Positions 1,454 through 18,724 of a stretch of 18,724 bases of DNA are shown one piece after another. Every line of letters begins with the position of its first letter. Position 1 is the stretch's first letter. Source of the stretch: a virus (lineage: Duplodnaviria > Heunggongvirae > Uroviricota > Caudoviricetes). The notes beneath the pieces are model-generated. The model searched no databases. It saw only the letters and a program-made list of their open reading frames with translations, and was not told where the DNA came from. The translations under genes and the position numbers were made by a program. Location of the stretch: the IMG/VR virus record IMGVR_UViG_2734482772_000011, positions 1-18,724 of that record, one strand, 5' to 3'.

Positions 1454-1485
1454 TCATTAAATGGACTTTGTGATTTGCAAAAAAA

Positions 1486-3021: not shown

Positions 3022-3026
3022 ATGTT

Positions 3027-3101: not shown

Positions 3102-3192
3102 AAATAAAAAAAGCCACCGTTGCAACTTAAGAGTCACTAACGGCATCTTATGCCAATAGTGTTGCTCATTTGCTCAATGATGTCAACACGTT
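3102..3192 (-). promoter_or_regulatory. late promoter region (pR-prime-like) downstream of Q
   Basis: Consensus -35 hexamer TTGACA on - strand (plus coords 3186-3181) right after the Q stop; no convincing -10 resolved by eye; position matches lambda pR-prime/qut. Confidence 0.3.
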
Positions 3193-3681: not shown

Positions 3682-4343
3682 GCGCCTTCTCCCTGTACCT
3701 GAATCAATGTGAGATTTCCGCAGAACACTGCCCCAGTATCGATATACATCTGGTTGGCAAATTTGAGTGGTTTCACTGCTGGCGTATGACCAAAGATAAA
3801 CGTGTCCGCGCCTTTAATTTCTTTAACGATCCCGTCTTGTGAGTTGCTGATTCGTTCGCGGTTCCAGATTACCTGCTGATGATCAACTGGCTTTCCAAAT
3901 TCGTATTCGTCACAAGGATAATCGGCGTGGCAGATGACATATTTTTTACCTTTGCTCACCAGTTCGATGATTAACGGAAGTTCTTCTGCTTTATGGGCAA
4001 GAGCTTTAGCCAGAATTTCTTTGTCGTAATCGAGATTAAAGAACCAGACACCGCCATTAAGCAGCCAGTGATTGACGTTTCCACGCTCTGATAAGCCATC
4101 AATCATCATGTGCTCATGGTTTCCACGTACAGCTCTGAACCAGGGGAATGTGATTAATTCCAGGCATTCAACGTTCTCTGCACCACGATCAACCAAATCG
4201 CCCACCGAGATAAGCAGGTCTTTTTTGTTGTCGAATCCAATCGTATCCAGTTTGTTCATCAGGTTCGTGTAGCATCCGTGCAGATCGCCAACTACCCAAA
4301 TATTTCGGTATTTGCTGCCATCAATTCTTTCGTAGATATTCAT
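3672..4343 (-). CDS. ninI: Ser/Thr protein phosphatase (lambda NinI/Orf221 type)
   Basis: Track ORF 223 aa; metallophosphatase motifs GDLHG, GDLVDRG, GNHE; position after ninG as in lambda. Confidence 0.9.
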
Positions 4344-4951
4344 GCAGCCTCACTTCTGCTGTTTCGCAGTTTTTTAAGTTTCTGTTGATACTCCGCCTTG
4401 ATGGCCCTGCACTCTTCGACAGTCCAGCGATGGCGGTTATGGTTTGATTCGATTTCGTCTACTGCTTCCTGCCCGATGCGGTTAATCAGTTCGACGCGAT
4501 ACGGAACGAGATTTCCGCTTTTATGTTGGTTGCACACCACGCATTGCTTGTGAATATTGCGTTCATCAAATCGGAGTTGAGGCGCCGCAGCAGTTGTCCG
4601 GTAATGCCCGGCATCCCACTGAGCAGACGTGAGCGTTCCGCACGAGATACATGGTAAGTCGCGGTCTCTTTCTCTGATGAAGGCGTTTACGGCTTGTTGG
4701 GCTTGTTTAATCCAGTAACTGCGGGGCTTTAAGGCGAGTTTTCGAATCTTAAGTTTATCTTTCTGTTTCTGCTCCTCTCGTCGTCGTTTCTTCTCTGCTG
4801 CCTTTTCCGCTTTTTCGCGTTCTTTGCTTCGTCGTTCGAGTGCTATCTTGGTTCCACACTCTGGAGAGCACCACCACTGATTGGCGAATGCAGGGTGAAA
4901 CCATTCCCGACATTCATCGTTTTTACATCGTCTTCGCGCTGGTTTAGCCAT
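4340..4951 (-). CDS. ninG: NinG (Rap) recombination protein
   Basis: Track ORF 203 aa; Cys-rich N-terminus ([12 protein letters not shown]...WWCSPECG) and lysine/glutamate-rich stretch typical of lambda NinG by recall. Confidence 0.9.
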
Positions 4952-5004
4952 CGTCTTCTTCCTCGTGCATCGAGCTATTCGGATCGCTCATCAGTTCTGC
5001 ACAG

Positions 5005-5511
5005 TTATGGTCTGCCATGGTTTTCATGAAAACCCAGTTCTTTTTCTGCCCTCTTCCTTTCTGCAATAGCGTCAATGATGCTAGCAAATATTCCAAGATA
5101 TTTGGTGCGCCCATCTACGCATATATTCGCAATCCACTTGCATCTCTCTTTATTGAAATACACTCCAGTCACTCCTGACGAATTGGTTATTTTTCTCTTT
5201 TGGTTCTGTGCATTCTGTTGGTGTGTAACCAATCGAAGATTAGATAGCCTATTATCTGACCTTACTCCATTTATATGATCAATTTTATACCCTAATGGAA
5301 TCTCACCATTATTTATCATCCATATAACGTGGTGAGCATAAGTAATTACACCATCGATAGTTAACATCCTATAACCATCACTCCTAATGTAACCAGCAAC
5401 ACTGCCAACCTTAACATTATTAGAAGGAGACACTTTCCATCTAAGTACACCTAAAACATCATCATATGATAATTTATTTCTTAATTCGTCTATGTTGCTT
5501 ATATTTCTCAT
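5005..5511 (-). CDS. HNH homing endonuclease with AP2-like DNA-binding domain
   Basis: Track ORF 168 aa; HNH_3-like segment (YKIDHINGVRSDNRLSNLRLVTHQQN) followed by AP2-like segment (SGVTGVYFNKERCKWIANICVDGRTKYLGIF); AT-rich by eye relative to flanking nin genes. Confidence 0.8.
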   Translation of the reverse strand: MRNISNIDELRNKLSYDDVLGVLRWKVSPSNNVKVGSVAGYIRSDGYRMLTIDGVITYAHHVIWMINNGEIPLGYKIDHINGVRSDNRLSNLRLVTHQQNAQNQKRKITNSSGVTGVYFNKERCKWIANICVDGRTKYLGIFASIIDAIAERKRAEKELGFHENHGRP

Positions 5512-5653
5512 TATGTTCCACCATATTTAAGCATTCATATATACAACGCTCACACACATGAACTTCCAGCACATGCAGCTTCTGACCGCAGTTAGCGCAC
5601 GTTAAAGCTCGCTCGACACTTCCTTGTTCGTAACTTCGATTTTGGTCAATCAC
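5474..5653 (-). CDS. ninF: NinF-like ORF with altered C-terminus (remnant at the junction with the HNH insert)
   Basis: Hand-translated, not in track: GTG at 5653-5651 overlaps ninE stop (GTGA); reads [59 protein letters not shown]; core [24 protein letters not shown] matches lambda NinF by recall; 3' end overlaps the HNH start by 38 nt. Confidence 0.45.
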
Positions 5654-5832
5654 CTTGTTTTCCTCGCACGTTCTCTAAGCCACCGGATATCCCACAGGTG
5701 AGCCGTGTAGTTGAAGGTTTTTACGTCAGATTCTTTTGGGATTGGCTTGCGTTTATTTCTGGAGCGTTTCGTTGGAAGGTATTTGCAGTTTTCGCAGATT
5801 ATGTCGGTGATACTTCGTCGCTGTCTCGCCAC
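5650..5832 (-). CDS. ninE: NinE
   Basis: Track ORF 60 aa, [23 protein letters not shown]... matches lambda NinE by recall. Confidence 0.9.
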
Positions 5833-5972
5833 ACGTCCTCCTTTTCCTGCGGTAGTGGTAACACCCCTGTTGGTGTTCTTTCACATCGGAGACACCATCG
5901 ATTCCAGTAAGGTTGATTTGGTCGGAAGCGGTTATCTTCTTTGCATTCACCGCACCGATAACATCGCATCAT
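5799..5972 (-). CDS. ninD: NinD (small Cys-rich protein)
   Basis: Within track ORF 5799..6032; start taken at [11 protein letters not shown] (ATG 5972-5970) which overlaps ninB stop as ATGA; Cys-x2-Cys pairs. Confidence 0.7.
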
Positions 5973-6409
5973 GCTGCCCGATCTCCCCATCTCGCTTTCC
6001 ACTCCAGAGCCAGTCGCGCTTCGTCTGACCACTTAACGCCACGCTCTGTACCGAATGCCTGTATAAGCTCTAATAGCTCCGCAAATTCGCTTACACGCAT
6101 CCTGCTGGTTGACTGGCCTATTACCACAAAGCCATTCCCGGCAAGGTTAGGAACAACGTCCTGCTGCTTTAATGCTGCGGTAAACACACACTTCCAGCTT
6201 TCTGCATCCAGCCAGCGACCATGCCATTCAACCTGACGAGAGACGTCACCAAGGCAAGCCCAAAGCTTTCGGTTTTGGTCTAAGCTGCGGTTGCGTTCCT
6301 GAATGGTTACTACGATTGGTTTGGTTGGGTCTGGAAGAATTTGCTGTACTGCGTGAATAGCGTTTTGCTGATGTGCTGGAGATCGAATTTCAAAGGTTAG
6401 TTTTTTCAT
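5969..6409 (-). CDS. ninB: NinB (Orf-family recombination mediator)
   Basis: Track ORF; start taken at [21 protein letters not shown] (ATG 6409-6407) with SD GAGGGA 5 nt upstream; matches lambda NinB by recall. Confidence 0.9.
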
Positions 6410-6422
6410 GACTTCCCTCTCC

Positions 6423-6457
6423 CCCAAATAAAAAGGCCTGCGATTACCAGCAGGCCT
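6423..6457 (-). terminator. intrinsic terminator between helicase and ninB (tR2 analog)
   Basis: 8-bp perfect stem AGGCCTGC/GCAGGCCT at 6434-6457, followed on the - strand by UUUUUAUUU. Confidence 0.6.
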
Positions 6458-6485
6458 GTTATTAGCTCAGTGATGTAGATGGTCA

Positions 6486-7922
6486 TCAGAATCCTCCTTT
6501 CTTCTTGGACTGCGGTTCCTCGCGTTCACGTCGGCGCATTTCAGCAGACTGTTGGTCTGTGTCATAAATAGCGCCATTTGCCTGAATGCAATACACCGTG
6601 CCGGTATTGCCATGACGATTGAGACGAAGGATTAGTTCAGTTTCACCAGGTGGAACACTGTCATCAAAAGCGCCTTCACGATGGATCCCGACCCAATAAT
6701 CGCAATCCTGTTCAATCTGCCCTGTATCTCGTGAGTCACTTGGTAATGGGCGTTTATTGGTTCTGCTTTCCAGTGCGCGGTTAAGCTGCGTCAGAAGCAC
6801 AACAACGCAATCAAGCTCTTTGGCAAGGTTCTTCAGTCCTTTGGTGATCATGCCGTAAGCAAGGTCGTTGCGATCGGCCTTCTCAGCGGTCATTAGTGTC
6901 AGGTAATCGACCAGAATCATGCCAACACATCCTTTTTCTCGCTTGATTCGACGGCTTTCGCTGACGATTTGAGCCAGAGATAATCCCGGCGTGTCGTCGA
7001 TGTAAAGCAGGTCTATTTCACTCAAGCGATTGGCTGTTTCTATCGCCCTGTTGAAGTCACCATCGTAATCACCCTGATAGCCGTCATCGGCGTCATTTGT
7101 CGCCGGAAGGTAAAAAATATTCGGGTTAACACCAGACTTCTGCCCTACCAGTTTTTCCAGTATCTGATCACCTGGCATTTCAAGGCTGAACATCAATGCG
7201 GGCTTTTTCTCATGCACTGCGCAATTGATTGCCATCTGGCTGTATAGCGTCGTTTTCCCCATCTTAGGGCGAGCGCCAATGACAAACAGAGAGCCTTTCA
7301 CCAGACCTTTCGGTGACAGCATCCTGTCCAGCGATGGGATCCCTGTGCTCATTCCCCGTTGTTCGCCTGACGGGTCAAATCGCTTCTCAAGGTCGCTAAC
7401 CCAGTCTTCCATGACCTCACCAAATGAGCGAAGGCCGCGACGCGATCCGGTTTTTGCATGGTCTGTCAGTTGCGTGAAAATCGACTGAATAGCTTCGTAC
7501 TTCTGCGTTGCAGTCATTCCGTTGCGGGAATAGAGCAATTCCGTCGCTTCAGTCATGCGGTTGATGGCGTAGCGTTCCATTGCGGTTTCGCGAACCTGCA
7601 TTGCATAAGCAACGATGTTTGCTGCGCTTGGCGTGTTCTTTGCGATCTCAGCGATATAAGCAAAACCGCCAACAGACGCCGTTAACGATTTACGCTCCAG
7701 TTCATCGAAAAGCGTCAGGCCATCTACTGGCTTTTGCTCACGGTGCATTCTGGTTATTTCTTCGAAAATGATTTTGTGTGGCCGGCTGTAAAATGAATCA
7801 GGCTTCAGCATCGCCAGAACCTTCTGGACGCGCTCACTGCTGTCATCATCCAGAAGCAATCCACCAATCACCGCCTGCTCTGCCTCGATGCTATGGGGCG
7901 GCGCATAAAAATTATCGGTCAT
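6486..7922 (-). CDS. replicative DNA helicase (DnaB family, P22 gene 12 type)
   Basis: Track ORF; Walker A GARPKMGKT, DnaB-like N-terminal segment SIEAEQAVIGGLLLD; ATG at 7922-7920 with SD GAGGGTG preferred over track GTG at 7937. Confidence 0.9.
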   Translation of the reverse strand: MTDNFYAPPHSIEAEQAVIGGLLLDDDSSERVQKVLAMLKPDSFYSRPHKIIFEEITRMHREQKPVDGLTLFDELERKSLTASVGGFAYIAEIAKNTPSAANIVAYAMQVRETAMERYAINRMTEATELLYSRNGMTATQKYEAIQSIFTQLTDHAKTGSRRGLRSFGEVMEDWVSDLEKRFDPSGEQRGMSTGIPSLDRMLSPKGLVKGSLFVIGARPKMGKTTLYSQMAINCAVHEKKPALMFSLEMPGDQILEKLVGQKSGVNPNIFYLPATNDADDGYQGDYDGDFNRAIETANRLSEIDLLYIDDTPGLSLAQIVSESRRIKREKGCVGMILVDYLTLMTAEKADRNDLAYGMITKGLKNLAKELDCVVVLLTQLNRALESRTNKRPLPSDSRDTGQIEQDCDYWVGIHREGAFDDSVPPGETELILRLNRHGNTGTVYCIQANGAIYDTDQQSAEMRRREREEPQSKKKGGF

Positions 7923-8811
7923 CGTGTTCACCCTCACGAACTTTCAGGTAGGTATTATCGTTAAGCAGGAAATCAAATCCCTTTTTGTGCCAGACAGTTC
8001 CGCGTTGATGGTTTGGACGCTCTTCGAACATCCATCGGCAATTTTCGCCTACGTAGCTCAAATAATTTCTCCAGTCCTGCATCGTGAACCCATGCCCGTC
8101 AAGCTGGCGGGTTATCACTCCGGCTTTGCGCCAGAACGTTCGGATCTGGTTTTTACGCTTGTCATTCAGTGCGCGGATTCTTGGAGCTTCAGGAAGGATT
8201 TCGTGGTAAGCATCGACAACATCCTGACAGCTGACGGAAGGTTTTTTCTTGTCAGACTTTTTGTCTGCTGTGGCACTCTCTAATACGTCAGTATTAGAGA
8301 TAATATTATTATATTCTTTATCTGTGGTAATTTGCTGGTAATCTGCTGGTACAGCATTGCTTACAGGCATTGGTATTGCTGGCTTTGAGGTGGTAATTTG
8401 CTGGTAATCTGCTGGTACAAAATTTGACTGATAATCGTCATATTTCTCTACTGAGAAAACTGAGAATTTACCGTGTGAAACCCAGTCAATCATGCCGAGT
8501 TTTTTGAACTTTCTAAGCAGGTACTGAACGCGATCTGGTTTGAGTCCTGTTTCAAACGCCAGAGAGTTTCTACCGCCAAGTAGCTTCCCTCTGCCTACCA
8601 GAATTTCTCCTGCGTCAGTCATTACATACTCAGGCGTATGCTTTGCTTTGAGGATTAAGTGAACCCACAGATGCGCTGCTTCTGCATCCTTGTAAAACGG
8701 CACATCCATAATTTTACGGTGCAGCAAGGCATACCCCTTACCGCTGCTTTGATGCGGTTGTTGTAGCCTTCTGGCCTCTCTGGCTTCGGCTAGATTAGAT
8801 ATGTTACTCAT
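7912..8811 (-). CDS. replication initiation protein (O-like)
   Basis: Track ORF 299 aa directly upstream of the helicase, downstream of cII; contains tandem peptide repeat [10 protein letters not shown] encoded by the iteron array, as in lambda O. Confidence 0.75.
8324..8419. repeat. origin-like iteron array inside the O-like gene, flanked by an AT-rich tract (8281-8320)
   Basis: Exact 30-bp direct repeat GTGGTAATTTGCTGGTAATCTGCTGGTACA at 8324-8353 and 8390-8419; each holds two TGCTGGTA sub-repeats 11 bp apart. Confidence 0.6.
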
Positions 8812-8950
8812 GACCTTTCTCCTTCTGCATCAGCTTCACTTTTTCCAACTCAGCCCGGAATCGACCAGGCTGCTTGAAGCTGGACAGGAAGCGATCACGT
8901 AGTATGTGTTTGTGAATTTTGTCCTGGTAAGGACTGAGTTGTTTTGTCAT
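8804..8950 (-). CDS. small hypothetical protein (48 aa) between cII and O
   Basis: Hand-translated, not in track: [48 protein letters not shown]; SD AGGAG 5 nt upstream of ATG 8950-8948; stop overlaps O start. Confidence 0.4.
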
Positions 8951-8982
8951 AATTACTCCTGTGGATTGATCCAGTAATTCCC

Positions 8983-9279
8983 TCAGAATTGCATATCAAT
9001 TTGCTTAGAGTCCCCGGCGGCCACCGGGGATTTTTTCTTTGTGATTCCATCAAGCGCATACTTAAAAGCCCTACTAATCGGACTGATGTCTGATGCCATT
9101 CCGAAAGCACACAAGACTGAAGCAATAAATCTCCAGTCCGTTCTGCTTATCTTCGATTCATGACAGCCAATCATCTTTGCCAGACCGCGCTGAGTAAGCG
9201 TTGACAGGTTGATAAGTAAATCTGTTTCTGCGCGATCAACGTCGCGCTGTGATAGTTTGCTGTAACTTGTTCGTTCCAT
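8983..9279 (-). CDS. cII: CII-like transcriptional activator
   Basis: Track ORF 98 aa; HTH region and C-terminus [18 protein letters not shown] resembling lambda CII (KKRPAATERSEQIQMEF) by recall; position between cro and O. Confidence 0.75.
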
Positions 9280-9364
9280 TTCTTAAGATTTCCAATAGTG
9301 AATAGCTAGTTGAAAGGTATGCGTGGAAACGCATATGGCCTTAGTTGGTCAAATATCTTGGAAC

Positions 9365-9410
9365 TCGCTTTTCAGCGACGTAGGACGAATGTCCGTTGTT
9401 ACAAAGAGCG
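9365..9410 (-). promoter_or_regulatory. nutR (boxA + boxB)
   Basis: On - strand: boxA CGCUCUUUGUAACAA (9410-9396), then boxB hairpin UCGCU-GAAA-AGCGA (9378-9365); same architecture as the nutL candidate. Confidence 0.55.
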
Positions 9411-9420
9411 GCTCCGCTTA

Positions 9421-9636
9421 TTAAGCGGCTTTGTGTTCCGGCGGGAACACGTCATCAAGACTTACTTTTGCGCCTAACTTATTTAGGCACGCAACAAGAG
9501 CACGGCATGTTTTAAGGTCTGGGAAGCGACGACCAGATTCCCAATGTCCGATAGCTCCCTGTGTGCATCCAACTGCCTTAGCAAGTGTTGTTTGAGAGAT
9601 ATTCAGTGACTCTCGATATTTTCGTAGGTTGCTCAT
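9421..9636 (-). CDS. cro: Cro-like repressor (HTH_XRE)
   Basis: Track ORF; start at MSNLRKYRESL (ATG 9636-9634) with SD GGAGG 5 nt upstream; HTH ISQTTLAKAVGCTQGAIGHWESG; divergent from cI. Confidence 0.75.
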   Translation of the reverse strand: MSNLRKYRESLNISQTTLAKAVGCTQGAIGHWESGRRFPDLKTCRALVACLNKLGAKVSLDDVFPPEHKAA

Positions 9637-9752
9637 ATGCCCTCCATAGTAACCTCGAATAAAAAATACAATATGTACTTTCCAAATACAAGCAAAAATA
9701 CACATTGTGCATGGATGGTTCCAGTACAGAGCGTAATAATAAGGACATGAAA
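9637..9752. promoter_or_regulatory. OR region (divergent PR/PRM with operator sites)
   Basis: Intergenic between divergent cro and cI; near-palindromic sites TACAATATGTAC (9667-9678) and TACACATTGTGC (9699-9710); the first recurs near pL. Confidence 0.6.
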
Positions 9753-10406
9753 ATGAAATGGTATGAACTGGCTAGATCCAGAATGAAAGAGCTCGGCATA
9801 ACTCAAGAGAAGTTAGCCGAAGAGCTAGGTATGACGCAGGGTGGGATTGGACACTGGTTGCGCGGATCTCGTCATCCATCTCTTAGTGATATTGGTGTGG
9901 TGTTTAAATACCTTGGTATTGATAACATATCATTCAACCACGACGGGACATTTTCACCTGTTGGCGAATACTCATCGGCCCCAGTTAAAAAACAATATGA
10001 GTACCCTGTATTTTCTCATGTTCAGGCTGGGATGTTCTCTCCAGAACTCAGAACCTTTACCAAAGGCGATGCGGAGAGATTGGTAAGCACAACCAAAAAA
10101 GCCAGTGACTCTGCATTCTGGCTTGAGGTTGAAGGTAACTCAATGACCGCACCAACAGGTTCCAAACCCAGTTTTCCTGACGGGATGTTAATTCTGGTTG
10201 ACCCTGAGCAAGCTGTTGAGCCCGGCGATTTCTGCATAGCCAGACTTGGTGGTGATGAATTTACCTTCAAGAAACTGATCAGGGATAGCGGTCAGGTGTT
10301 TTTACAACCACTAAACCCACAGTACCCAATGATCCCATGCAATGAGAGTTGTTCCGTTGTGGGGAAAGTTATCGCCAGCCAGTGGCCTGAAGAGACGTTT
10401 GGGTGA
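9753..10406 (+). CDS. cI: CI repressor (HTH + LexA/S24-like autopeptidase)
   Basis: Track ORF; start at ATG 9753 (SD AAGGA 7 nt upstream); N-terminal HTH ([20 protein letters not shown]), C-terminal S24 motifs (GNSM ... FKKL). Confidence 0.9.
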
Positions 10407-10472
10407 TATATGTGAAATGCATATATTGATATAAATGCAGCAATATCAAATAGTTAAAAGGTTATATTTTTA

Positions 10473-10853
10473 ATGAATGATCTTGATAAGAAAAAGTACG
10501 ACCAAGTTATTGATTCTGTGAACTTCGCCCTTAGATCGTTGTCAGAGTTATTCGAAGCCCATGGAATGCATGGGATGTATGATCTAACGAATCCAAGCCT
10601 TGATGAGCTAAAATTAGTGTTTACAAGGATGAAAAACGGTGTTGACTCTATTGCTCAAAGCTTTGAGCACATGGTAGAGACAGCAAAGGATATGGATGCC
10701 GCAAGTGCAAGCATAAATGTTATGAACATCAAACAAGGATTGATGTATGCTGAATCACTATTGCTTGCTGTAGAGAAATTAGACTATGATAAATGTGTGG
10801 AAGCAAATACGCAGATAAAAACCCACGATCTTCCACCAACCCAATGGCCTTAA
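10473..10853 (+). CDS. hypothetical protein, AT-rich accessory gene in the rexA position
   Basis: Track ORF 126 aa co-oriented with and downstream of cI; A/T-rich codons by eye; acidic, no obvious TM segment; no family recognised. Confidence 0.6.
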   Translation: MNDLDKKKYDQVIDSVNFALRSLSELFEAHGMHGMYDLTNPSLDELKLVFTRMKNGVDSIAQSFEHMVETAKDMDAASASINVMNIKQGLMYAESLLLAVEKLDYDKCVEANTQIKTHDLPPTQWP

Positions 10854-10921
10854 TAGTAAATCAAGATTTCATATAGTCTATTTGAACTAGGCTAGTACCA
10901 TAAAATAAACCGAGGAAACGC

Positions 10922-11023
10922 AATGAAAACCATGTCTACTCTGCACAAAGATGCAATGACCCTGAGATCTCTCATTAACGAGATTCTGGCTCGCTCGTCA
11001 GCACACACCAAAAAAGCCGCATA
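10922..11023 (+). CDS. small peptide ORF (33 aa)
   Basis: Hand-translated: MKTMSTLHKDAMTLRSLINEILARSSAHTKKAA; SD GAGG 7 nt upstream; followed 11 nt later by an intrinsic terminator. Confidence 0.35.
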
Positions 11024-11034
11024 ATGCCTACATA

Positions 11035-11060
11035 ACCCGGCCTCAGCGCCGGGTTTTCTT
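11035..11060 (+). terminator. intrinsic terminator ending the cI operon (tImm analog)
   Basis: CCCGGC-CTCAGC-GCCGGG hairpin followed by TTTTCTTT. Confidence 0.7.
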
Positions 11061-11245
11061 TGCCTCACCCCCCACCTAAAGACACATAACCAAATGTATT
11101 TATTGAAAAATAAATAGATACAACTCACTAAACCACGCAATTCTGATCTCTCCTTACATCGCCGAGGCGATACACCCACGCTAAAAAACAACACTATTAA
11201 ATACAAAGTGTTATAAAAAATCACCCCATTTTAGAACAAATCGTA

Positions 11246-11274
11246 TTGACCCAATAAAGTACATATCGTACTAT
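11246..11274 (+). promoter_or_regulatory. pL-like promoter with overlapping operator
   Basis: -35 TTGACC (11246-11251), 17-nt spacer, -10 TACTAT (11269-11274); revcomp of 11259-11270 is TACGATATGTAC, 11/12 identical to OR site 9667-9678. Confidence 0.5.
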
Positions 11275-11319
11275 TTAACCGTCAGCAGGACGCTGGAAGC
11301 CAAACGGAACAGACTGGCA

Positions 11320-11366
11320 GGCTCTTTAAACAACGTCGAACTCTCGACTACGTGGCTGAAAAGCCA
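11320..11366 (+). promoter_or_regulatory. nutL (boxA + boxB)
   Basis: boxA GGCTCTTTAAACAA (11320-11333) then boxB hairpin TGGCT-GAAA-AGCCA (11353-11366), about 100 nt upstream of the N start. Confidence 0.6.
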
Positions 11367-11464
11367 GATCACCCAACCACATGAGCTGTGGGATGCAATG
11401 CCGAAGCAACCGTCTCAGGAGGAGCTTCGAGATTGCATCACCAAAGTTTATTCGGGAGGAATCT

Positions 11465-11787
11465 ATGTCCAGAAAAACAGAATTTAAAGGCACCTCAGCT
11501 TCTCGTCGTAGAGCTCGTCGCGCAAACCTGCAAAGTCAGGAGGCGATTAGCTCCGACAAGCTACACAGACCAACCCCCTCTCGAGTGGTCTTGCAATGCA
11601 AGCGCAAACCAGCAATGAGAGCAGAAGTAATAACACTGACAACGTTGACCAGAAAATATGAAGGCTCAACTTGTCTTCCAAATGTAGCTCTTTACGCGGC
11701 AGGCTACAGGAAATCAAAACAACTGACAGCAAGGTGACTTGTGTTGGTCGCCAGAAAATAAAATTAGGCAGCAAACCACTTATTTGA
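11465..11787 (+). pseudogene. N: N-like antiterminator interrupted by an apparent 1-bp deletion (or sequencing error)
   Basis: ATG 11465 (SD GGAGG) opens frame with arginine-rich motif TSASRRRARRANLQ and stops at TGA 11735-11737; the conserved N C-terminus VTCVGRQKIKLGSKPLI is in the -1 frame, ending at 11787; adding one A to the A4 run at 11716-11719 fuses them into a 107-aa protein. Confidence 0.6.
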
Positions 11788-11795
11788 GGTGATAT

Positions 11796-12245
11796 ATGGA
11801 AGAACAAGCAAACAAGATTCTCGTAGAACTATTGCAAAAAGCCAGTAATGGAATAGACGCGGCTGTTTCATTTAGCCAGGCACAGATTCCTGATGTTATC
11901 CATCAGTTGCTGCTATGGAATATGGTTGACAGTCTGATTAAAACATTAATAGCCATTCTAACAATCCCACTGGTTTTCTGGTTTATGAAGAAGCAGTGCC
12001 AAAGAGTTGAGATAGGTAAAATCGGTAATGAAGGATATTCATGGGAGAAGGGAAATCCCAAATACAGGCCGACAATGGTTTGGGATAGCAAAGGTGATAT
12101 TGATCTTCTTATCATGCCATTGGTTGGAGTTTTGACTCTGTGGGGGATTTTTATTATTGGTGCAGTAACCAATATGACTTGGTTAAAAATTTGGCTGGCC
12201 CCAAAGCTTTACCTTATCGAATATGCAGCATCATTGGTTAAGTAA
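11796..12245 (+). CDS. hypothetical two-TM membrane protein (sieB-position accessory gene)
   Basis: Track ORF 149 aa; SD GAGGTG upstream; two hydrophobic segments (LIKTLIAILTIPLVFWFM and LLIMPLVGVLTLWGIFIIGAV); AT-rich by eye; between N and tL1-like terminator. Confidence 0.6.
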   Translation: MEEQANKILVELLQKASNGIDAAVSFSQAQIPDVIHQLLLWNMVDSLIKTLIAILTIPLVFWFMKKQCQRVEIGKIGNEGYSWEKGNPKYRPTMVWDSKGDIDLLIMPLVGVLTLWGIFIIGAVTNMTWLKIWLAPKLYLIEYAASLVK

Positions 12246-12248
12246 TTT

Positions 12249-12274
12249 CAGGCCGCATAGTCGGCCTTTATTTT
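12249..12274 (+). terminator. intrinsic terminator (tL1 analog)
   Basis: AGGCCG-CATAGT-CGGCCT hairpin followed by TTATTTTT. Confidence 0.7.
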
Positions 12275-12394
12275 TGGCATAAACAACAGAATAAACACTG
12301 CACTGTGTATTCATTCCAACGAGTGAATACACGGAGCAATGTCGCTCGTAACTAAACAGGAGCCGACTTGTTCTGATTATTGGAAATCTTCTTT

Positions 12395-12418
12395 GCCCTC
12401 CAGTGTGAGGGCTTTTTT
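12395..12418 (+). terminator. intrinsic terminator (tL2 analog)
   Basis: GCCCTC-CAGTGT-GAGGGC hairpin followed by TTTTTT. Confidence 0.75.
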
Positions 12419-12484
12419 ATATGCATACCAATAACGCTTCACTCGAGGCGTTTTCGTTATGCAATCAAATATAAGGAGTTACCC

Positions 12485-12619
12485 ATGATGCACTTTCAGC
12501 TCGCGGGTAGCGGCGTCATGTCCGCTTTCTACCCGCACGAATCTGAATTATCACGCCGAGTTAAACAATTAATCAGAGCAGCAAAGAAACAACTGGAGGC
12601 GTTATGCGCAATGAAATAG
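12485..12619 (+). CDS. cIII: CIII-like protein (FtsH inhibitor)
   Basis: In-frame part of track ORF 12380..12619 downstream of the terminator; ATG 12485 with SD AAGGAG 6 nt upstream; AGSGVMSAFYPHESELSRRVKQLIRAAKKQL resembles the lambda CIII helix region by recall. Confidence 0.55.
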   Translation: MMHFQLAGSGVMSAFYPHESELSRRVKQLIRAAKKQLEALCAMK

Positions 12620-12756
12620 CCATTAATCACCAGATGCTTCGTGCTGCACAGAACAAAGCAGTAATAGCCCGATTTATTGGTGATTCAAAAATGTGGCTTG
12701 AAGCAAATAAAGCGATGAAATCAGCTATCAACCTTCCGTGGTATCGCAGGAAATGA
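12604..12756 (+). CDS. Kil-like small protein
   Basis: Hand-translated 50 aa: MRNEIAINHQMLRAAQNKAVIARFIGDSKMWLEANKAMKSAINLPWYRRK; start overlaps cIII end; FIGD.KM motif and position recall lambda Kil (low certainty). Confidence 0.4.
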   Translation: MRNEIAINHQMLRAAQNKAVIARFIGDSKMWLEANKAMKSAINLPWYRRK

Positions 12757-12837
12757 GTTTTACAGATAACTGGTCAGACGAAGAATTCATTCGTCAGATG
12801 AAAGAAATGCTCAATCAGCACAAAGAACAGGAGAAAG

Positions 12838-13149
12838 ATGATGATTCTGACTCTGAATGATAAGCGTGAAATATCGCAAATAATCGCAAGTTTTACTGAT
12901 GAAGATTACGAACGAATCAACAGTGAAGTTGATCGCCTCTGCAAACGTTGCGACCCAATAAGCGAAATGCTTCGCTCATATAAACCAGATGAACACACTA
13001 AGGACGCTATCGACTGGCTGGAAGATGATGACTGTAACTATCAGGAAAAAGCCGCTGAATGGTTCTGGGATGCAATAACCGAAAGAGTTAAGGCTGAATA
13101 TGCCTTCGCAATATTCAAACGCAGACACATTTTTGGAGAAGCTGCATGA
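12838..13149 (+). CDS. hypothetical protein upstream of recombinase
   Basis: Track ORF 103 aa, acidic, ends 4 bp into the RecT start; no family recognised. Confidence 0.5.
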   Translation: MMILTLNDKREISQIIASFTDEDYERINSEVDRLCKRCDPISEMLRSYKPDEHTKDAIDWLEDDDCNYQEKAAEWFWDAITERVKAEYAFAIFKRRHIFGEAA

Positions 13150-14057
13150 GCAATATCGTTGAATTCGTTAAACAGCAGGAGCAGTTATTCTGCGGAGCAT
13201 TGACTGAACAGACGGTGACATGGGCTAAGGAAAGCCAGTTTGCAATTCAGTATTTCCAGAAAAACGATTACCTGGCTAAAACAGCACTGGCAAATCCAAC
13301 CAGCGCACAGAACGCCATCATCAATGTTGCGGCGATCGGCATCACCTTAAACCCGGCCAGCAAACTGGCTTATCTGGTTCCGCGCGACGGCATGGTGTGC
13401 CTTGATATCAGTTATATGGGATTGCTCCATATTGCAATGGAGTCTGGTGTTATCTCATGGGGTCAGGCAAAACTTGTTCATGCTAACGATACCTATGAGT
13501 CAAACGGGCTTGATAAAGCACCAACCCATAAATACAACGCCTTCGGTGATCGTGGTGATATCGTTGGCGTTTACTGCACAGTTAAGACGCCAGCAGGTGA
13601 TTATCTAACGGAAGAGATGAGTCTGGCTGAAATTGAGGCTGTAAGGAAAACAAGCAAGGCGGCCTTCAGCGATAAAGGACCATGGGTAAATCACTGGAAT
13701 GAGATGGCGCGAAAGACGGTCGTAAAGCGTGCAAGCAAGTATTGGCCTAAGGCATCACGTCTTGATAGTGCTATTCACGTACTAAACGAAGAAGAAGGTG
13801 TGTGGACTGAACCAGTTATGCCGCACAAATCAGAGGAAGATATCCGCGAAGATGAACGGAAACGCCAGCAGGAAATAACGGATAAAGCACAACTTCTTTG
13901 TGATGAAATGGCTCAGGCAGAAAACATGGATGATTTGAAGCGATATTTTGCAGAAGCATATCGCCTGACATCTGGAATGAAATTGCAGCAGAACGTACAA
14001 GCCATTTACGCAGAATGCAAAGCGAAACTGGAGGTTGCCAGTGAGCAAACTGTATGA
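13146..14057 (+). CDS. recT: RecT-family single-strand annealing recombinase
   Basis: Track ORF 303 aa; segment KGPWVNHWNEMARKTVVKRASKYWP resembles the RecT core (GPWVTHWEEMAKKTAIRR) by recall. Confidence 0.8.
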   Translation: MSNIVEFVKQQEQLFCGALTEQTVTWAKESQFAIQYFQKNDYLAKTALANPTSAQNAIINVAAIGITLNPASKLAYLVPRDGMVCLDISYMGLLHIAMESGVISWGQAKLVHANDTYESNGLDKAPTHKYNAFGDRGDIVGVYCTVKTPAGDYLTEEMSLAEIEAVRKTSKAAFSDKGPWVNHWNEMARKTVVKRASKYWPKASRLDSAIHVLNEEEGVWTEPVMPHKSEEDIREDERKRQQEITDKAQLLCDEMAQAENMDDLKRYFAEAYRLTSGMKLQQNVQAIYAECKAKLEVASEQTV

Positions 14058-14523
14058 AATTGCCAATGAATACGCAAAGCTGATGGATTCAGATTTAGAA
14101 CCAGAGATGATTGCTGACACAATAGAAGGCATGGAAGGAGAATTTACCGATAAAATAGAGCAACTTCTTGCCATTATTAAAAATGAATCTGGTTATGCTG
14201 AATGCCTCAAGGAAGAGGCAAAGTCACTAAATGAACGAGCCGCAGTAATTCAAAATAAGATTGACAACATTATGGCGTATATAGCGTCATCGCTTGAAAT
14301 GGTTGGCAAGAAAAAGATTCGAGCAGGTATTCACCAGGTAACAATCCGCAAACCGTCAGAAACTGTAGAAATCATCGACTCAAGCGCCATTCCTCCTGAA
14401 TACGTTGAGTTTGAAACGACAATTAAAGCCGACAAGTTGGCAATCAAACACCAACTAAAAGCAGGAATAAATATCCCCGGCGCTCAACTCAAAGTTGGGA
14501 AACCTTCACTTCTTATCAAATAA
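14041..14523 (+). CDS. Gp157-family protein (Siphovirus Gp157-like)
   Basis: Track ORF; GTG 14041 with SD GGAGG 6 nt upstream preferred over track TTG 14035; family call from recalled pattern and recombinase adjacency, not verified. Confidence 0.5.
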   Translation: MSKLYEIANEYAKLMDSDLEPEMIADTIEGMEGEFTDKIEQLLAIIKNESGYAECLKEEAKSLNERAAVIQNKIDNIMAYIASSLEMVGKKKIRAGIHQVTIRKPSETVEIIDSSAIPPEYVEFETTIKADKLAIKHQLKAGINIPGAQLKVGKPSLLIK

Positions 14524-14534
14524 CGGTATCGCCT

Positions 14535-14849
14535 ATGAAAAAGACTCCATGGGAGAAATGGGAAGTCGATTTCTTACGCGAAGTAGCGGCGACAATGCCA
14601 GTTGAAGTTATCGCTGAAAAACTGGAAAGGACTGAAAAAGCAGTAATGGCGAAAGCAACAAGGATTGGCGCTGACATTGTTAGCCGACTTCGTGGAAGAC
14701 GATGGACAAGAGCCGAAGTATCACTTTTCGGTAAGTTCTCCGCAGAAGAAATAGCAATTGCAACCTGCCGCTCAATTTATTCAGTAAGAGCTATGCGATA
14801 CAAGCTAAAAAAACTCGATGAAGAAAGAGCAGGCATACGAATAAATTAA
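14535..14849 (+). CDS. hypothetical protein with internal tandem helical repeat
   Basis: Track ORF 104 aa; two ~35-aa repeats each starting with W and acidic residues (WEKWEVDFLREVAATMP... and WTRAEVSLFGKFSAEEIA...). Confidence 0.5.
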   Translation: MKKTPWEKWEVDFLREVAATMPVEVIAEKLERTEKAVMAKATRIGADIVSRLRGRRWTRAEVSLFGKFSAEEIAIATCRSIYSVRAMRYKLKKLDEERAGIRIN

Positions 14850-14865
14850 CATGGAGTAATTAACA

Positions 14866-15147
14866 ATGAAGCTAAACATAGACCTAGGCAAATATGTTAT
14901 TACCGGAACCAAACACGATCTGATTCTTAGCGAAAGAGGAATTCTCAAAGAAGGCGAGAATGCAGGGAAAGAAACACTAAGCCGTATCGGTTATTACAGC
15001 AAGTTTGAGCATCTGGTTAAAGAATTATGCAACCGTGAAATCCTGTTATCTCAGGCGCAGACGCTACAGGATATTCAGCAACATATCGAGACTTTAGGTG
15101 TGTCACTTAGCATGGCTGTTGACCAGTTCGTGGAGAGTAAATCATGA
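14866..15147 (+). CDS. hypothetical protein
   Basis: Track ORF 93 aa in a co-directional operon; no family recognised. Confidence 0.45.
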
Positions 15148-15311
15148 GAGGACTTGCATACAATCCCGGCATTCTTCCGGCAGAAATGATTATTCGTCAA
15201 CGCGTAAAGCCAATGCCATCGAGAGAGGAATTGCTTAAGAGAAAGAGTTTCGGTTCTGTTAATGACAACAAATATCTGAATGCGATGTGGCGTAAAGGAG
15301 GCAACCAGTGA
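15144..15311 (+). CDS. small hypothetical protein (55 aa)
   Basis: Hand-translated: ATG 15144 overlaps upstream stop (ATGA); [55 protein letters not shown]. Confidence 0.4.
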
Positions 15312-15562
15312 GTAATTCAGCACGACTACAGCTTGGTTTTTCACCGCTATCAAAAACTATCATGCTGGCAAAAATGCGCGATGTTGAAGGTGGACGTATG
15401 CGCGTTGGCAATGATCCAGGTCGTGATGTTACCAATGAGGCCGCTCAATTGGTGTGGCGACTGGTCATGGCTGAAGGTGGTGAGATAGTGTGGGAGCTGG
15501 ATGATGGTTCTCGCATGGTGTTGAAGGCAGAAAAGCAGGAGGCAACCAGTGAGCAAGATTGA
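15308..15562 (+). CDS. hypothetical protein
   Basis: Track ORF 84 aa; GTG start overlapping upstream stop (GTGA) with AGGAGG 6 nt upstream. Confidence 0.45.
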
Positions 15563-16211
15563 CTATCAGGCACTGCGTGAGTTAGCAAAACAGGCAACAC
15601 AGGGTGAATGGGTCGCATTTATTTCGCCGGGCAAATACGGCACGTACGCCGTACACACACCAGGTGATAATCATCACGGAGATATTGTCGACTGGCCAGG
15701 ATTCGACGAACAGAAAAACGCAGAGAACAACGCTCGTTATATCGCAGCTTTCAACCCTGAAGTAGTGCAGGCGCTGCTGGATGAACGGGAAAGAAACCAG
15801 CAATACATCAAATCACGCGACCAGGAGAACGAGGAAATTGCGCTAACGGTAGGGAAGCTGCGTGTTGAGCTGGAAGCCGCAGAGAAGCGCAACGCAAAAT
15901 TACAAAGCGAGAATGCATACATCCGCAACCGGTTCAAAGAACTGGACCTGTTAATCGGGAAAAACATTCTGGTCATGCAGGCTGCCATTATAGAATGGCA
16001 GGCAACTGGCGACGCTAAGAGCGGACTGGCATGGATTTATAACACACTGTTTGACCCAGGCGAATTGCCGGACGAATCTGAGAAAGATGCTCAGGCCTAC
16101 TTTAATCGCAAATATGCACCGATTGACGAAAAGCTTATGGAGCTTCACGAGTGGTTTTGGGAACAAAGTAAAGCCGAGCGCGCCGCTGGCATTCGCATCA
16201 AAGGAGAGTGA
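15549..16211 (+). CDS. Ead/Ea22-like protein
   Basis: Track ORF 220 aa; N-terminus [22 protein letters not shown] typical of the Ead/Ea22-like family by recall; coiled-coil-like middle. Confidence 0.7.
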   Translation: MSKIDYQALRELAKQATQGEWVAFISPGKYGTYAVHTPGDNHHGDIVDWPGFDEQKNAENNARYIAAFNPEVVQALLDERERNQQYIKSRDQENEEIALTVGKLRVELEAAEKRNAKLQSENAYIRNRFKELDLLIGKNILVMQAAIIEWQATGDAKSGLAWIYNTLFDPGELPDESEKDAQAYFNRKYAPIDEKLMELHEWFWEQSKAERAAGIRIKGE

Positions 16212-16212
16212 T

Positions 16213-16734
16213 ATGAGCACTATCACTAAAGAACGTATCGAATTGTTCATTAAAAATCCGCTTGAAAACGGACTTACCCGTGGCGAACAAATGGAACTGG
16301 CACGGATTGCACTGGCATCGCTGGAAGCCGAACCTGTAAGCCAAACTTACAAGTTTCCAGTTAATACACCTTGCCAGGATGCGCCAGCCCATATCTGGCT
16401 GCAAACGGCTGGAGTATGGCCAGAAGATGGCGAGTTAAGCGAATTAACGTGGTGCAGCCACAATCAGCACCATGATGACACGCTATTTGTTCGAGCTGAC
16501 CTTGTGAATGGCAACTCTCCGGTAACTCCGGATGGTTGGATAAGCTGTAGTGAGCGAATGCCGGAGAAATACGATTTCGATATCTGGGTATTCTCTCCAT
16601 CCAGAGGCGTTCTTGACGGGCTACAGTGGGATGGCTCGATGTTTACTGATGATGAATATCAGTTCGTTATTCATGACGCCACGCATTGGATGAGAAAAGC
16701 ATATCCAGCAGCACCGCAGCAGGATGGTGAATGA
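16213..16734 (+). CDS. DUF551-like protein
   Basis: In frame with track ORF 16051..16734; start taken at ATG 16213 (SD AAGGAG 6 nt upstream); C-terminal GWISCSERMPEKYDFDIWVF resembles DUF551 by recall. Confidence 0.6.
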   Translation: MSTITKERIELFIKNPLENGLTRGEQMELARIALASLEAEPVSQTYKFPVNTPCQDAPAHIWLQTAGVWPEDGELSELTWCSHNQHHDDTLFVRADLVNGNSPVTPDGWISCSERMPEKYDFDIWVFSPSRGVLDGLQWDGSMFTDDEYQFVIHDATHWMRKAYPAAPQQDGE

Positions 16735-16884
16735 TGCCGCCAGTTAAAGTTGTGATTATCACTTTGGTGATGATAGTGATTGCGAGAATCATGTCTGGTG
16801 AAGTTTGGTGGATATGGTAATGGCTAAGGCAGCAGCAGAGCGCAACTAACAATCCTCGCACTCGCGGGGATTTCTTTTATCTGA

Positions 16885-16910
16885 ACTCGCTACGGCGAGT
16901 TTTATTTTAT
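16885..16910 (+). terminator. intrinsic terminator
   Basis: ACTCGC-TACG-GCGAGT hairpin followed by TTTTATTTTA. Confidence 0.5.
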
Positions 16911-16921
16911 GGAGATGACAA

Positions 16922-17089
16922 ATGCACTTCCGAGTCACAGGTGAATGGAATGGAGAACCATTCAACAGAGTTATCGAAGCCGAGAACATCAGCGACTGCT
17001 ATGACCACTGGATGCTGTGGGCGCAGATAGCACATGCAGACGTAACCAACATTCGAATTGAAGAACTGAAAGAACACCAAGCCGCCTGA
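16922..17089 (+). CDS. small hypothetical protein (55 aa)
   Basis: Hand-translated: MHFRVTGEWNGEPFNRVIEAENISDCYDHWMLWAQIAHADVTNIRIEELKEHQAA; SD GGAG 7 nt upstream; flanked by two terminators. Confidence 0.45.
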   Translation: MHFRVTGEWNGEPFNRVIEAENISDCYDHWMLWAQIAHADVTNIRIEELKEHQAA

Positions 17090-17102
17090 TGGCGGTTTTT
17101 TG
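17080..17102 (+). terminator. intrinsic terminator
   Basis: CCGCC-TGAT-GGCGG hairpin followed by TTTTTTGG. Confidence 0.6.
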
Positions 17103-17112
17103 GGGGTAGTAG

Positions 17113-17328
17113 ATGGCTGCAATTCACATTATATCAATAACATGCAATGTAATTCAGATAGTTGCTTGCATTATCTTTGTTTTCTCAATCATTCGCTCCC
17201 GACGATATTCTCCAGCAATTAACCGACATCCTGCACAGGTTGAAGCAGTCAGGATGGCTATAGAGTTACGAAATGAGATGAATAAGGCATTAATGGAGAT
17301 GGAGAAACCATTCACTGACAAACATTAA
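17113..17328 (+). CDS. hypothetical small protein with hydrophobic N-terminus
   Basis: Track ORF 71 aa; hydrophobic IHIISITCNVIQIVACIIFVFSII segment then charged tail. Confidence 0.4.
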   Translation: MAAIHIISITCNVIQIVACIIFVFSIIRSRRYSPAINRHPAQVEAVRMAIELRNEMNKALMEMEKPFTDKH

Positions 17329-17454
17329 GAGTGGAAATAAAGAAATCACACCGCCTCACACTCGGTGAGGCCTGTTCATTGCTCAATGATATCCAGACCT
17401 ACCATCGCCGCATCAATGCGGCTTTTTCTTGCGTGTAATTGCGGAGACTTTGCG

Positions 17455-17673
17455 ATGTACTTGACACTTCAGGAGTGGAACGCTCGCCAGCGACGCCCAA
17501 GAAGCCTTGAAACAGTTCGTCGATGGGTGCGCGAATGCAGGATATTCCCTCCTCCGGTTAAGGATGGAAGAGAGTATCTGTTCCACGAATCAGCGGTAAA
17601 GGTTGACTTAAATCGACCAGTAACAGGTAGCCTTTTGAAGAGGATCAGAAATGGGAAGAAGGCGAAGTCATGA
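17455..17673 (+). CDS. xis: excisionase Xis
   Basis: Within track ORF 17365..17673; from ATG 17455 reads MYLTLQEWNARQRRPRSLETVRRWVRECRIFPPPVKDGREYLF..., matching lambda Xis by recall; 3' end overlaps int start. Confidence 0.9.
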   Translation: MYLTLQEWNARQRRPRSLETVRRWVRECRIFPPPVKDGREYLFHESAVKVDLNRPVTGSLLKRIRNGKKAKS

Positions 17674-18724
17674 GCGCCGGGATTTACCCCCTAACCTTTA
17701 TATAAGAAACAATGGATATTACTGCTACAGGGACCCAAGGACGGGTAAAGAGTTTGGATTAGGCCGAGACAGGAGGATAGCAATCACTGAAGCAATACAG
17801 GCCAATATTGAGTTACTCTCAGACAGCGGACGCAAATCACTAATAGACAGAATTAAAGGCGGTGACGCAATCACTCTTCATGTGTGGCTTGACCGATATG
17901 AAACAATCCTCACCGAAAGGGGGATCAGGCCGAAAACTCTACTCGACTACGCCAGCAAAATCAGGGCAATCCGAAGAAAATTGCCGGACAAACCGCTCAC
18001 TGACATATCAACGAAAGAAGTGGCAGCAATGCTAAACACCTACGTAGCAGAAGGTAAAGCAGCTTCCGCAAAATTAATCAGGTCAACCCTTGTTGACGTT
18101 TTTCGTGAAGCAATAGCCGAGGGGCATGTGGCAACGAATCCGGTAACGGCAACCCGTACAGCAAAGTCAGAAGTAAGGCGCTCAAGGCTGACAGCTAATG
18201 AGTATGTCGAGATTTACCATGCAGCCGAACCTCTCCCTATCTGGCTAAGACTGGCGATGGATTTGGCCGTCGTTACAGGGCAGAGAGTCGGCGATTTGTG
18301 CAGAATGAAATGGTCAGACATAAACGACAACCATCTTCACATTGAACAGAGTAAAACAGGGGCTAAACTCGCCATTCCGCTAACGCTAACGATTGACGCG
18401 CTCAATATCTCATTGGCTGATACACTACAGAAATGCAGGGAGGCCAGCAGCAGTGAAACTATAATCGCATCAAAGCATCACGATCCGCTTTCCCCGAAAA
18501 CAGTATCAAAGTATTTTACAAAGGCGAGAAATGCATCTGGACTCTCATTTGATGGAAACCCGCCAACATTCCATGAACTGCGTAGCCTGTCAGCGAGGCT
18601 ATACCGGAACCAGATTGGCGATAAGTTTGCTCAACGTCTTCTCGGGCATAAATCAGATTCAATGGCGGCGCGGTATAGGGACAGCCGTGGACGGGAATGG
18701 GACAAAATTGAAATCGACAAATGA
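17651..18724 (+). CDS. int: tyrosine integrase (lambda Int type)
   Basis: Track ORF 357 aa, MGRRRSHERRDLPPNLYIRNNGYYCYRDPRTGKEFGLGRDRRIAITEAIQANIEL... matches lambda Int by recall; gene ends at the window edge. Confidence 0.95.
   Translation: MGRRRSHERRDLPPNLYIRNNGYYCYRDPRTGKEFGLGRDRRIAITEAIQANIELLSDSGRKSLIDRIKGGDAITLHVWLDRYETILTERGIRPKTLLDYASKIRAIRRKLPDKPLTDISTKEVAAMLNTYVAEGKAASAKLIRSTLVDVFREAIAEGHVATNPVTATRTAKSEVRRSRLTANEYVEIYHAAEPLPIWLRLAMDLAVVTGQRVGDLCRMKWSDINDNHLHIEQSKTGAKLAIPLTLTIDALNISLADTLQKCREASSSETIIASKHHDPLSPKTVSKYFTKARNASGLSFDGNPPTFHELRSLSARLYRNQIGDKFAQRLLGHKSDSMAARYRDSRGREWDKIEIDK

Follow-up and report, generated by a model that had tools for sequence, protein, structure and literature searches.

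A two-helix membrane protein gene directly behind N

The DNA analysed here, positions 1–18,724 of the IMG/VR virus record IMGVR_UViG_2734482772_000011 (Caudoviricetes), is called the window below, at its full length of 18,724 nucleotides (nt), and its + strand reads leftward, in the direction of pL, along a lambdoid prophage. Directly behind the antitermination gene N, it carries an open reading frame (ORF) of 149 amino acids (aa). Judged from its sequence and that of its relatives, this ORF encodes a small inner-membrane hairpin protein with two helices, which belongs to a very large, uncharacterised phage family, PHROG 3054. We tentatively favour, with rather less than even confidence, a role as a non-essential factor directed at the envelope during the lytic cycle, in lysis timing, envelope protection or the control of secondary infection. 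The gene and its parts are as follows.

11796–12245, + strand: the studied ORF, 149 aa, ATG start; two-pass inner-membrane protein, PHROG 3054 (Sf6 gene 34 family)
11771–11795, + strand: upstream edge of the cassette, including the Shine-Dalgarno (SD) sequence GAGGTGAT (11786–11793); homology to other carriers starts only at 11771–11787
11796–11924, + strand: N-terminal tail, aa 1–43; motif GIDAxVxFxxAEIPDVIHQLLxW; invariant F26, P32, Q37 and L39; acidic; predicted helical and periplasmic
11931–11987, + strand: membrane helix 1, aa 46–64, from the hydropathy and conservation profiles; sequence non-conserved
11988–12104, + strand: variable basic loop, aa 65–103, beginning KKQCQR; 12–76 aa across the family; predicted cytoplasmic
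12105–12173, + strand: membrane helix 2, aa 104–126; sequence non-conserved
12174–12242, + strand: C-terminal tail, aa 127–149; motif WLxIWxAPKxxLIEYAAxLxK; invariant P136, K137 and L140; predicted periplasmic or interfacial
12250–12277, + strand: intrinsic terminator, GGCCGCATAGTCGGCC plus T-run; travels with the gene and comes first among the pL-operon terminators here

An initial annotation of the window had reported an ORF with a good SD at exactly 11796–12245, a soluble N-terminal segment followed by two clear hydrophobic helices, and an intrinsic terminator immediately downstream, and all of this stood. The GAGG of the SD stops 6 nt ahead of the ATG; in the Kyte-Doolittle hydropathy profile, the first 43 aa are non-hydrophobic and net-acidic, and two hydrophobic segments follow at about aa 46–64 and 104–126; and the hairpin with its T-run begins 5 nt past the stop codon. 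Because the protein matches PHROG 3054 over its full length, has many homologs and is under purifying selection in the + frame (ratio of non-synonymous to synonymous substitution rates, dN/dS, below 1), sequence comparison identifies 11796–12245 as a real gene and not a chance ORF. Conservation of the + frame ruled out both a spurious ORF and a gene on the opposite strand, where ORFs lie at 11903–12172 and 11547–11807. The AT-richness that had been noted by eye is genuine (G+C 39.3% in the ORF vs 46.1% in the whole window); however, it is unremarkable and no strong anomaly, since the adjoining segments of the pL operon are just as low (G+C 0.36–0.41).

A large family in temperate and virulent phages

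Residues 1–149 matched profile positions 1–137 of 137 of PHROG 3054, a family annotated as 'unknown function', with E = 7.7e-64, and 107 of 107 diverse relatives matched the same profile. A set of 5.8 billion proteins yielded 547 homologs, every one labelled 'hypothetical'. Among cluster representatives at 50% identity there were 1852 relatives (E ≤ 1e-3), all of them stand-alone proteins of 115–185 aa. When 50,697 phage genomes were searched with tblastn, 176 records carried a homolog. Temperate lambdoid or P22-like carriers include Sf6 (gene 34, 49% identity), Oslo (AMBK_46, 88%), HF4s, Gally and Stx2_EH2086; strictly virulent carriers include phi92 (gp220) and its relatives, the N4-like Klebsiella phage MY01, Salmonella phage UTK0001, many Vibrio phages of the Nahant collection and Pseudomonas phage Lyrsu01. 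The homologs of the virulent phages are located among early, middle or DNA-metabolism genes, with neighbours such as a DUF2800 nuclease (Vibrio phages), an AAA ATPase (phi92), RNAP2 and dUTPase (MY01) or a DNA polymerase (locus L024). A scan for prophages with one genome per species found 31 loci in Gamma- and Betaproteobacteria, Bacteroidota and Ignavibacteria, and every host named in our searches is diderm.

The family is thus already catalogued as a sequence family (PHROG 3054, Sf6 gene 34) and is functionally blank. Searches of Pfam, NCBIfam and PADLOC with the ORF protein gave no match (0 families of PADLOC-DB at E ≤ 10), Pfam searches with the 107 aligned members returned only scattered sub-threshold membrane-protein noise, and a sequence profile search of the PDB returned nothing. 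The remote-homology check advised in the initial annotation therefore turned up no characterised non-defensive homolog in Pfam, NCBIfam, PADLOC, profile or fold searches. The family goes unmentioned in papers on CSP1 lysis suppression, on the genome of phage L and on lambdoid Chi phages. The closest copy in an Escherichia coli chromosome, in strain 129 (O103:H2; locus L008), has 98% nt identity and lies in a degraded prophage, in which two IS3 copies (4314–5527 and 11892–13105 of the locus) interrupt terminase, cII and exo and the homolog of our ORF is intact.

Conserved tails on a variable membrane anchor

In an alignment of the 107 diverse members, both tails were conserved, whereas the helices and the loop were not, and 90 of the 107 had two hydrophobic segments. 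The dN/dS values followed the same division, with 0.05–0.12 in the N-terminal tail, 0.1–0.25 in the C-terminal tail and 0.4–0.6 in the centre, which indicates relaxed constraint on the centre of the protein. Positive selection there was not demonstrated: the values of 0.4–0.6 were obtained at informative divergence, and dN/dS exceeded 1 only in one near-identical pair (5 non-synonymous changes and 1 synonymous change).

Comparison with Sf6 gene 34 gave the same picture at the nt level. Identity was 95% over codons 1–41 and 93% over codons 129–149, and between these ends there was no detectable nt similarity (window 11920–12179 vs Sf6, L001, 3125–3357). This intragenic mosaic suggests module exchange, for which the conserved ends may serve as recombination sites.

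To orient the protein in the membrane, we relied on the positive-inside rule. Among 347 members with two helices, the 12-residue flanks held 3.4 lysine and arginine residues on the loop side and 1.3 on the tail side, charge favoured a cytoplasmic loop in 81%, and members with short loops still retained about 2.8 of these residues in about 15. The protein probably adopts an N-out/C-out topology, which would place both conserved tails at the periplasmic face.

A promoterless cassette in the pL operon

The surroundings of the gene could be read against the Shiga toxin (Stx) phage VT2-Sakai, which is 93–97% identical to the window over 11034–11801 and in which the pRM terminator, OL operators, pL, nutL and N are annotated. 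The corresponding features in the window are as follows.

11034–11055, + strand: terminator of the cI (pRM) transcript, timm-like; 8 bp, 6 of them G-C, −15.9 kcal/mol
11246–11274, + strand: promoter-like match TTGACC-17-TACTAT with overlapping operators, a putative pL; aligns with the 'major leftward promoter' and operators of VT2-Sakai
11320–11366, + strand: nutL-like site read from the sequence, boxA-like GCTCTTTAA and hairpin TGGC-TGAAAA-GCCA
11465–11737, + strand: antitermination protein N (90 aa), matching Pfam PF25694 N_peptide at E = 1e-31 and sharing 96.6% nt identity with VT2-Sakai across the N region

The region of the terminator at 11034–11055 is 93% identical to VT2-Sakai, in which this site carries the annotation 'rho independent terminator for pRM transcript', and the putative nutL site aligns with the annotated 'N-utilization leftward' site. 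Because the sites annotated in VT2-Sakai correspond in this way, the ORF can be assigned to the pL operon, behind N and ahead of that operon's first terminator, as the initial annotation had it.

VT2-Sakai also defines the edges of the cassette. It shares the sequence of the window through 11801 (N, a 58-nt spacer and ATGGAA) and again from 12263, and between the same junctions it carries an unrelated gene of 83 aa, H0090, in place of the ORF, which points to a swappable accessory cassette of the N–cIII region. Seen from the other side, the homology of the P22-like phages HF4s and Gally and of Salmonella phage Oslo to the ORF begins only at its upstream edge (11771–11787). We scanned IMG/VR for close relatives of the gene and found 80 loci, in 79 of which the gene could be placed; these relatives are 74–99% identical. 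In all 79, the gene lies downstream of N on the same strand. What stands between the two varies: ral in about 25 loci, sieB on the opposite strand in about 10, H0090 in about 5 and nothing in about 35. Whichever gene precedes, only about 15–25 nt upstream, essentially the SD, are conserved with the gene. The terminator follows the gene in essentially the same form in nearly all of the 79; in the window its hairpin (12250–12267) has 6 bp, 5 of them G-C, with −9.7 kcal/mol, and is followed by TTTATTTTT.

The initial annotation had advised a search for a promoter of the ORF's own in the junction behind N. No sigma-70-like promoter was found from 11400, just upstream of the N start codon, to the ORF start, where the best match was 8/12. 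The sequence thus describes the ORF and its terminator as a promoterless cassette directly behind N.

The junction sequence ending ATTTGAGGTGATAT-ATG (11768–11807) recurs ahead of different genes of the pL operon; it is present twice in Sf6 (L001, 2644–2683 and 2992–3124), and in some IMG/VR loci it is found behind the terminator as well. It resembles the 'boundary sequences' annotated in Sf6 (bsq4), which may mediate cassette shuffling.

Some distant homologs close the lysis cassette

Outside the close relatives, the setting of the gene is different. At least 10 of the 31 prophage loci have the homolog directly 3ʹ of an Rz-like i-spanin gene, separated by a 7-nt gap or joined by a stop/start overlap, so that the lysis cassette of the late operon ends with the homolog. 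These loci come from Pantoea, Buttiauxella, Dryocola, Proteus, Yersinia, Xenorhabdus and a metagenome-assembled genome of the Enterobacteriaceae. The lysis genes upstream were confirmed as a holin (PHROG 198), endolysins (PHROGs 181, 7 and 1768) and spanins (PHROGs 13, 214, 1152 and 312). Four spanin PHROGs, three endolysin types and a holin precede the homolog, and its association with the lysis cassette is not tied to any one lysis protein family. No conserved partner gene was found in these comparisons; the only recurrent neighbours are N in the close relatives and Rz-like spanins in the distant prophages.

A third setting was seen in prophages of Pseudomonas lundensis and Rahnella, in which a lone copy, flanked by terminators and on the opposite strand, lies between the genes for the large terminase and the portal. 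The inserted unit (3764–4519 of the Pseudomonas lundensis locus L016; also in the Rahnella locus L017) consists of the homolog and a 62-aa ORF. The terminase is 813 aa long in the Rahnella prophage vs 490 aa in that of Pseudomonas, and its extra central segment could be an intein-like insertion. The homolog of Vibrio phage 207E29.1 is also alone and opposite to its neighbouring genes.

Candidate role in the envelope and alternative explanations

We favour an envelope role because the ends of lysis cassettes are the only recurrent functional neighbourhood of the family, because strictly virulent phages carry it and because all named hosts are diderm. Following the lambda paradigm, pL would drive the ORF along with N as an immediate-early gene on infection or induction, already before N acts, and the ORF would be silent in the repressed lysogen. 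The working part of the protein would be its terminal helices, namely the acidic N-terminal tail of about 43 aa and an amphipathic C-terminal tail of about 22–23 aa, both of which the positive-inside rule would set on the periplasmic face, and the two membrane helices with the basic cytoplasmic loop would form an interchangeable anchor. In the lytic cycle, the protein would work on its own on the periplasmic side of the infected cell's inner membrane, and the envelope would be controlled or protected until programmed lysis, as by antiholins or by the T4 proteins Sp and Imm; these serve as functional analogies only.

Several points weigh against this reading. No characterised homolog of the protein was found, and the literature, searched by topic and by PHROG identifier, accessions and Sf6 gp34, yielded no work on any family member. 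The topology call comes from charge statistics only, and the second membrane helix taken alone points the opposite way, with an acidic loop end and a net positive C-terminal tail. The AlphaFold2 model, which has a long helix at residues 2–68, a small irregular loop and helices at 106–125, 128–134 and 136–148, reached only moderate scores (predicted local distance difference test 72, predicted template modelling score 0.44), and fold searches returned nothing specific. Promoter scans would miss weak or non-sigma-70 promoters; the lone opposite-strand copies must have a promoter of their own and look like lysogenic-conversion morons. The ORF of the window itself sits in an early operon, far from the lysis genes, unlike antiholins. 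Finally, the slot behind Rz, like the N–cIII slot, is a known insertion hot spot for accessory genes, and adjacency to lysis genes may be positional and not functional.

A role in host takeover or anti-defence is unlikely, and it is the alternative that survives best. Here an early membrane protein would use its conserved tails to bind and inhibit a conserved envelope protein of the host or a defence effector bound to the membrane; the target might be a protease, a transporter or receptor, or a component of division or stress sensing, and cIII acting on FtsH, Kil on FtsZ and DicB on ManYZ are analogues. The ORF stands in one early operon with N, ral, cIII and Kil, all of them host modulators, it is a single gene that lacks a conserved partner, and virulent phages keep it in early or middle positions. 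Tail conservation extends over phages that infect Enterobacterales, Vibrio, Pseudomonas, Betaproteobacteria and Bacteroidota, which suggests a target conserved in the host and not in other phages. However, about one third of the prophage homologs lie in a late lysis cassette, a position that comes too late for either takeover or early anti-defence. Nor can a target be named, and Pfam and PDB profile searches gave no similarity to known inhibitors.

The idea of the initial annotation, a membrane exclusion or abortive-infection factor in the niche of SieB, is quite unlikely. Such a factor would need a weak promoter belonging to the gene itself for expression from the prophage, and cells infected by other phages would be killed or blocked. 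A small membrane protein in the N–cIII accessory slot, where sieB and ral sit, would suit it, and so would a gene whose presence varies among near-identical phages, which is always bundled with a terminator in the manner of a moron and whose G+C is under the window average. Yet the gene runs in the direction of pL, shows no promoter-like site and takes only an SD along, and the pRM transcript ends at 11034–11055, ahead of pL. Genuine sieB occurs alongside a PHROG 3054 gene in phage Oslo and about 9 IMG/VR loci, and homologs are present in strictly virulent phages and late lysis operons. There was no PADLOC match, and the family profile aligned with SieB of Oslo at an hhalign probability of 0.4%, with no Pfam or NCBIfam match, in keeping with the earlier remark that the protein is not recognisable as SieB. 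The idea is kept alive mainly by the lone opposite copies in Pseudomonas lundensis, Rahnella and Vibrio phage 207E29.1, which need their own promoter, and by the hypervariable centre with the Sf6 intragenic mosaic, as expected of a specificity determinant, although a dN/dS below 1 in the centre at moderate divergence fits relaxed constraint better than positive selection. Of the sieB-like position first proposed, the slot held good, as it carries sieB in relatives, and the orientation did not, as sieB lies on the opposite strand. Taken together, the pL-codirectional gene with no promoter and its virulent and late-lysis homologs lend no support to SieB-like exclusion or abortive infection in lysogens. 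An abortive-infection protein of that kind thus appears less likely than the envelope role, and exclusion exerted within the lytic cycle, as by T4 Imm or Sp, may be compatible with the anatomy.

It is hardly credible that the protein, like phi29 p16.7 or p1, anchors complexes of phage DNA replication or recombination to the membrane: DNA-metabolism neighbours in virulent phages and the site upstream of the recombination module in lambdoid phages would agree with it, whereas the conserved tails are acidic and predicted to be periplasmic, nucleic-acid-binding features are missing, the lysis-cassette and terminase/portal contexts do not fit, and the gene is dispensable in close relatives.

The envelope role can also be put more broadly. 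PHROG 3054 might be a new, widespread class of periplasm-facing regulators of the diderm envelope, used by temperate and virulent phages alike, a proposal that we regard as very unlikely. The tail helices would then engage a component common to many phage–host pairs, for which candidates are the coiled coil that Rz-type spanins have in the periplasm, a lysis checkpoint independent of the holin or a conserved inner-membrane complex of the host, and would set the timing of envelope breach or decide whether a second phage can breach. If true, this would be a previously undescribed layer of lysis or superinfection control.

The family deserves attention in any case. It is large, has no Pfam model, structure or literature, and is spread over lambdoid, P22-like, N4-like, phi92-like, Vibrio and Pseudomonas phages and over prophages in several phyla of diderm bacteria, and its sites right behind N and right behind Rz are among the most thoroughly studied parts of lambdoid genomes. 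The genetically tractable phage Sf6 carries a member, so a function could be assigned by simple deletions and assays of lysis or superinfection, and invariant tails on an interchangeable anchor make clear where to mutate. If lysis or secondary infection is under the control of the family, a common component would be added to textbook schemes; otherwise, it is one more accessory membrane protein.

Other features of the window

− strand: cro, listed ahead of cI
9705–10406, + strand: cI
10473–10853, + strand: ORF126, 126 aa; directly behind cI and ahead of the pRM-transcript terminator, in the slot of lambda rexAB
12395–12412 and 12433–12452, + strand: terminator-like hairpins with T-runs, between the cassette terminator and cIII
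12838–13149, + strand: ORF of 103 aa just upstream of RecT; PHROG 3486 (function not assigned); same position in phage Gally
5005–5511, − strand: HNH endonuclease gene (Pfam HNH_3, E = 1e-19) beside NinG in the rightward operon; AT-rich patch, G+C 0.36–0.38

ORF126 belongs to PHROG 16322 (function not assigned), lies in the lowest-G+C stretch of the window (0.36–0.39) and had no match in Pfam or PADLOC. The cI transcript ends before pL, and the lysogen-expressed unit of cI and ORF126 is therefore separate from the pL operon. ORF126 would be co-transcribed with cI in lysogens; judged by position, it is a stronger candidate than the studied ORF for an exclusion gene expressed in lysogens.

With the cassette terminator, the two further hairpins make three successive terminator-like sites within 200 nt upstream of cIII; behind them come cIII, Kil (PHROG 2055), RecT, more early genes and then int. 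An Rfam search of 10800–12900 found no RNA family, the cIII thermometer included. The 103-aa ORF had no match in Pfam or PADLOC, and the HNH gene is probably a mobile insertion of the homing type.

Comparison with known systems

The closest counterparts are true homologs: Sf6 gene 34, Oslo AMBK_46, HK639_44, the 'TM helix-containing protein' of HF4s and phi92 gp220. The ORF shares with the Sf6-type homologs the two-helix architecture and the tail motifs and, in lambdoid and P22-like phages, the site in the early left operon ahead of a terminator. Sf6 gp34 differs in its centre, where the stretch from the first membrane helix through the loop to the second is unrelated, and overall aa identity is 49%.

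SieB of lambda and P22, which is expressed in lysogens from its own promoter, is likewise a membrane protein encoded by an accessory gene between N and the recombination genes. In contrast to sieB, which runs on the opposite strand, as seen in Oslo, the ORF is co-directional with pL and promoterless, and in some phages its homolog stands beside sieB itself.

The best functional analogy for an envelope guard of the lytic cycle is offered by T4 Imm and Sp (spackle), which are small early envelope proteins, embedded among the replication genes of a virulent genome. Imm also has two hydrophobic helices, and Sp couples exclusion to lysis resistance. Given its site behind N and ahead of the first pL terminator, the ORF protein would probably be expressed early. 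The differences are that Imm has 83 aa and no conserved extramembrane tails, that Sp is a soluble periplasmic protein and that the late lysis-cassette site of many family members has no parallel in either. Homology was rejected for both, at an hhalign probability of 0.1% each.

Antiholins and lysis-timing accessories (P2 LysA, T4 RI and P1 LydB) are non-essential membrane proteins that modulate lysis from genes in or beside lysis cassettes, and at least 10 of the 31 prophage homologs likewise stand at the end of such a cassette. Known antiholins are matched to a specific holin, whereas the tails of PHROG 3054 stay constant behind unrelated sets of holin, endolysin and spanin. Homology to P2 LysA was rejected (hhalign probability 0.2%), and Pfam and PHROG gave no holin or antiholin match, with T4 RI and P1 LydB outside the comparison.

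Like the morons HK97 gp15, lambda bor and lom, the ORF is present or absent among near-identical phages, has a lower G+C and carries its own terminator. A classical moron, however, has its own promoter and is expressed in the prophage, whereas the cassette brings only a ribosome-binding site.

In architecture and distribution, the family differs from every characterised exclusion, immunity or antiholin protein. Nothing indicates a categorically new kind of system, and the ORF is a testable lead, not evidence of a new defence gene.

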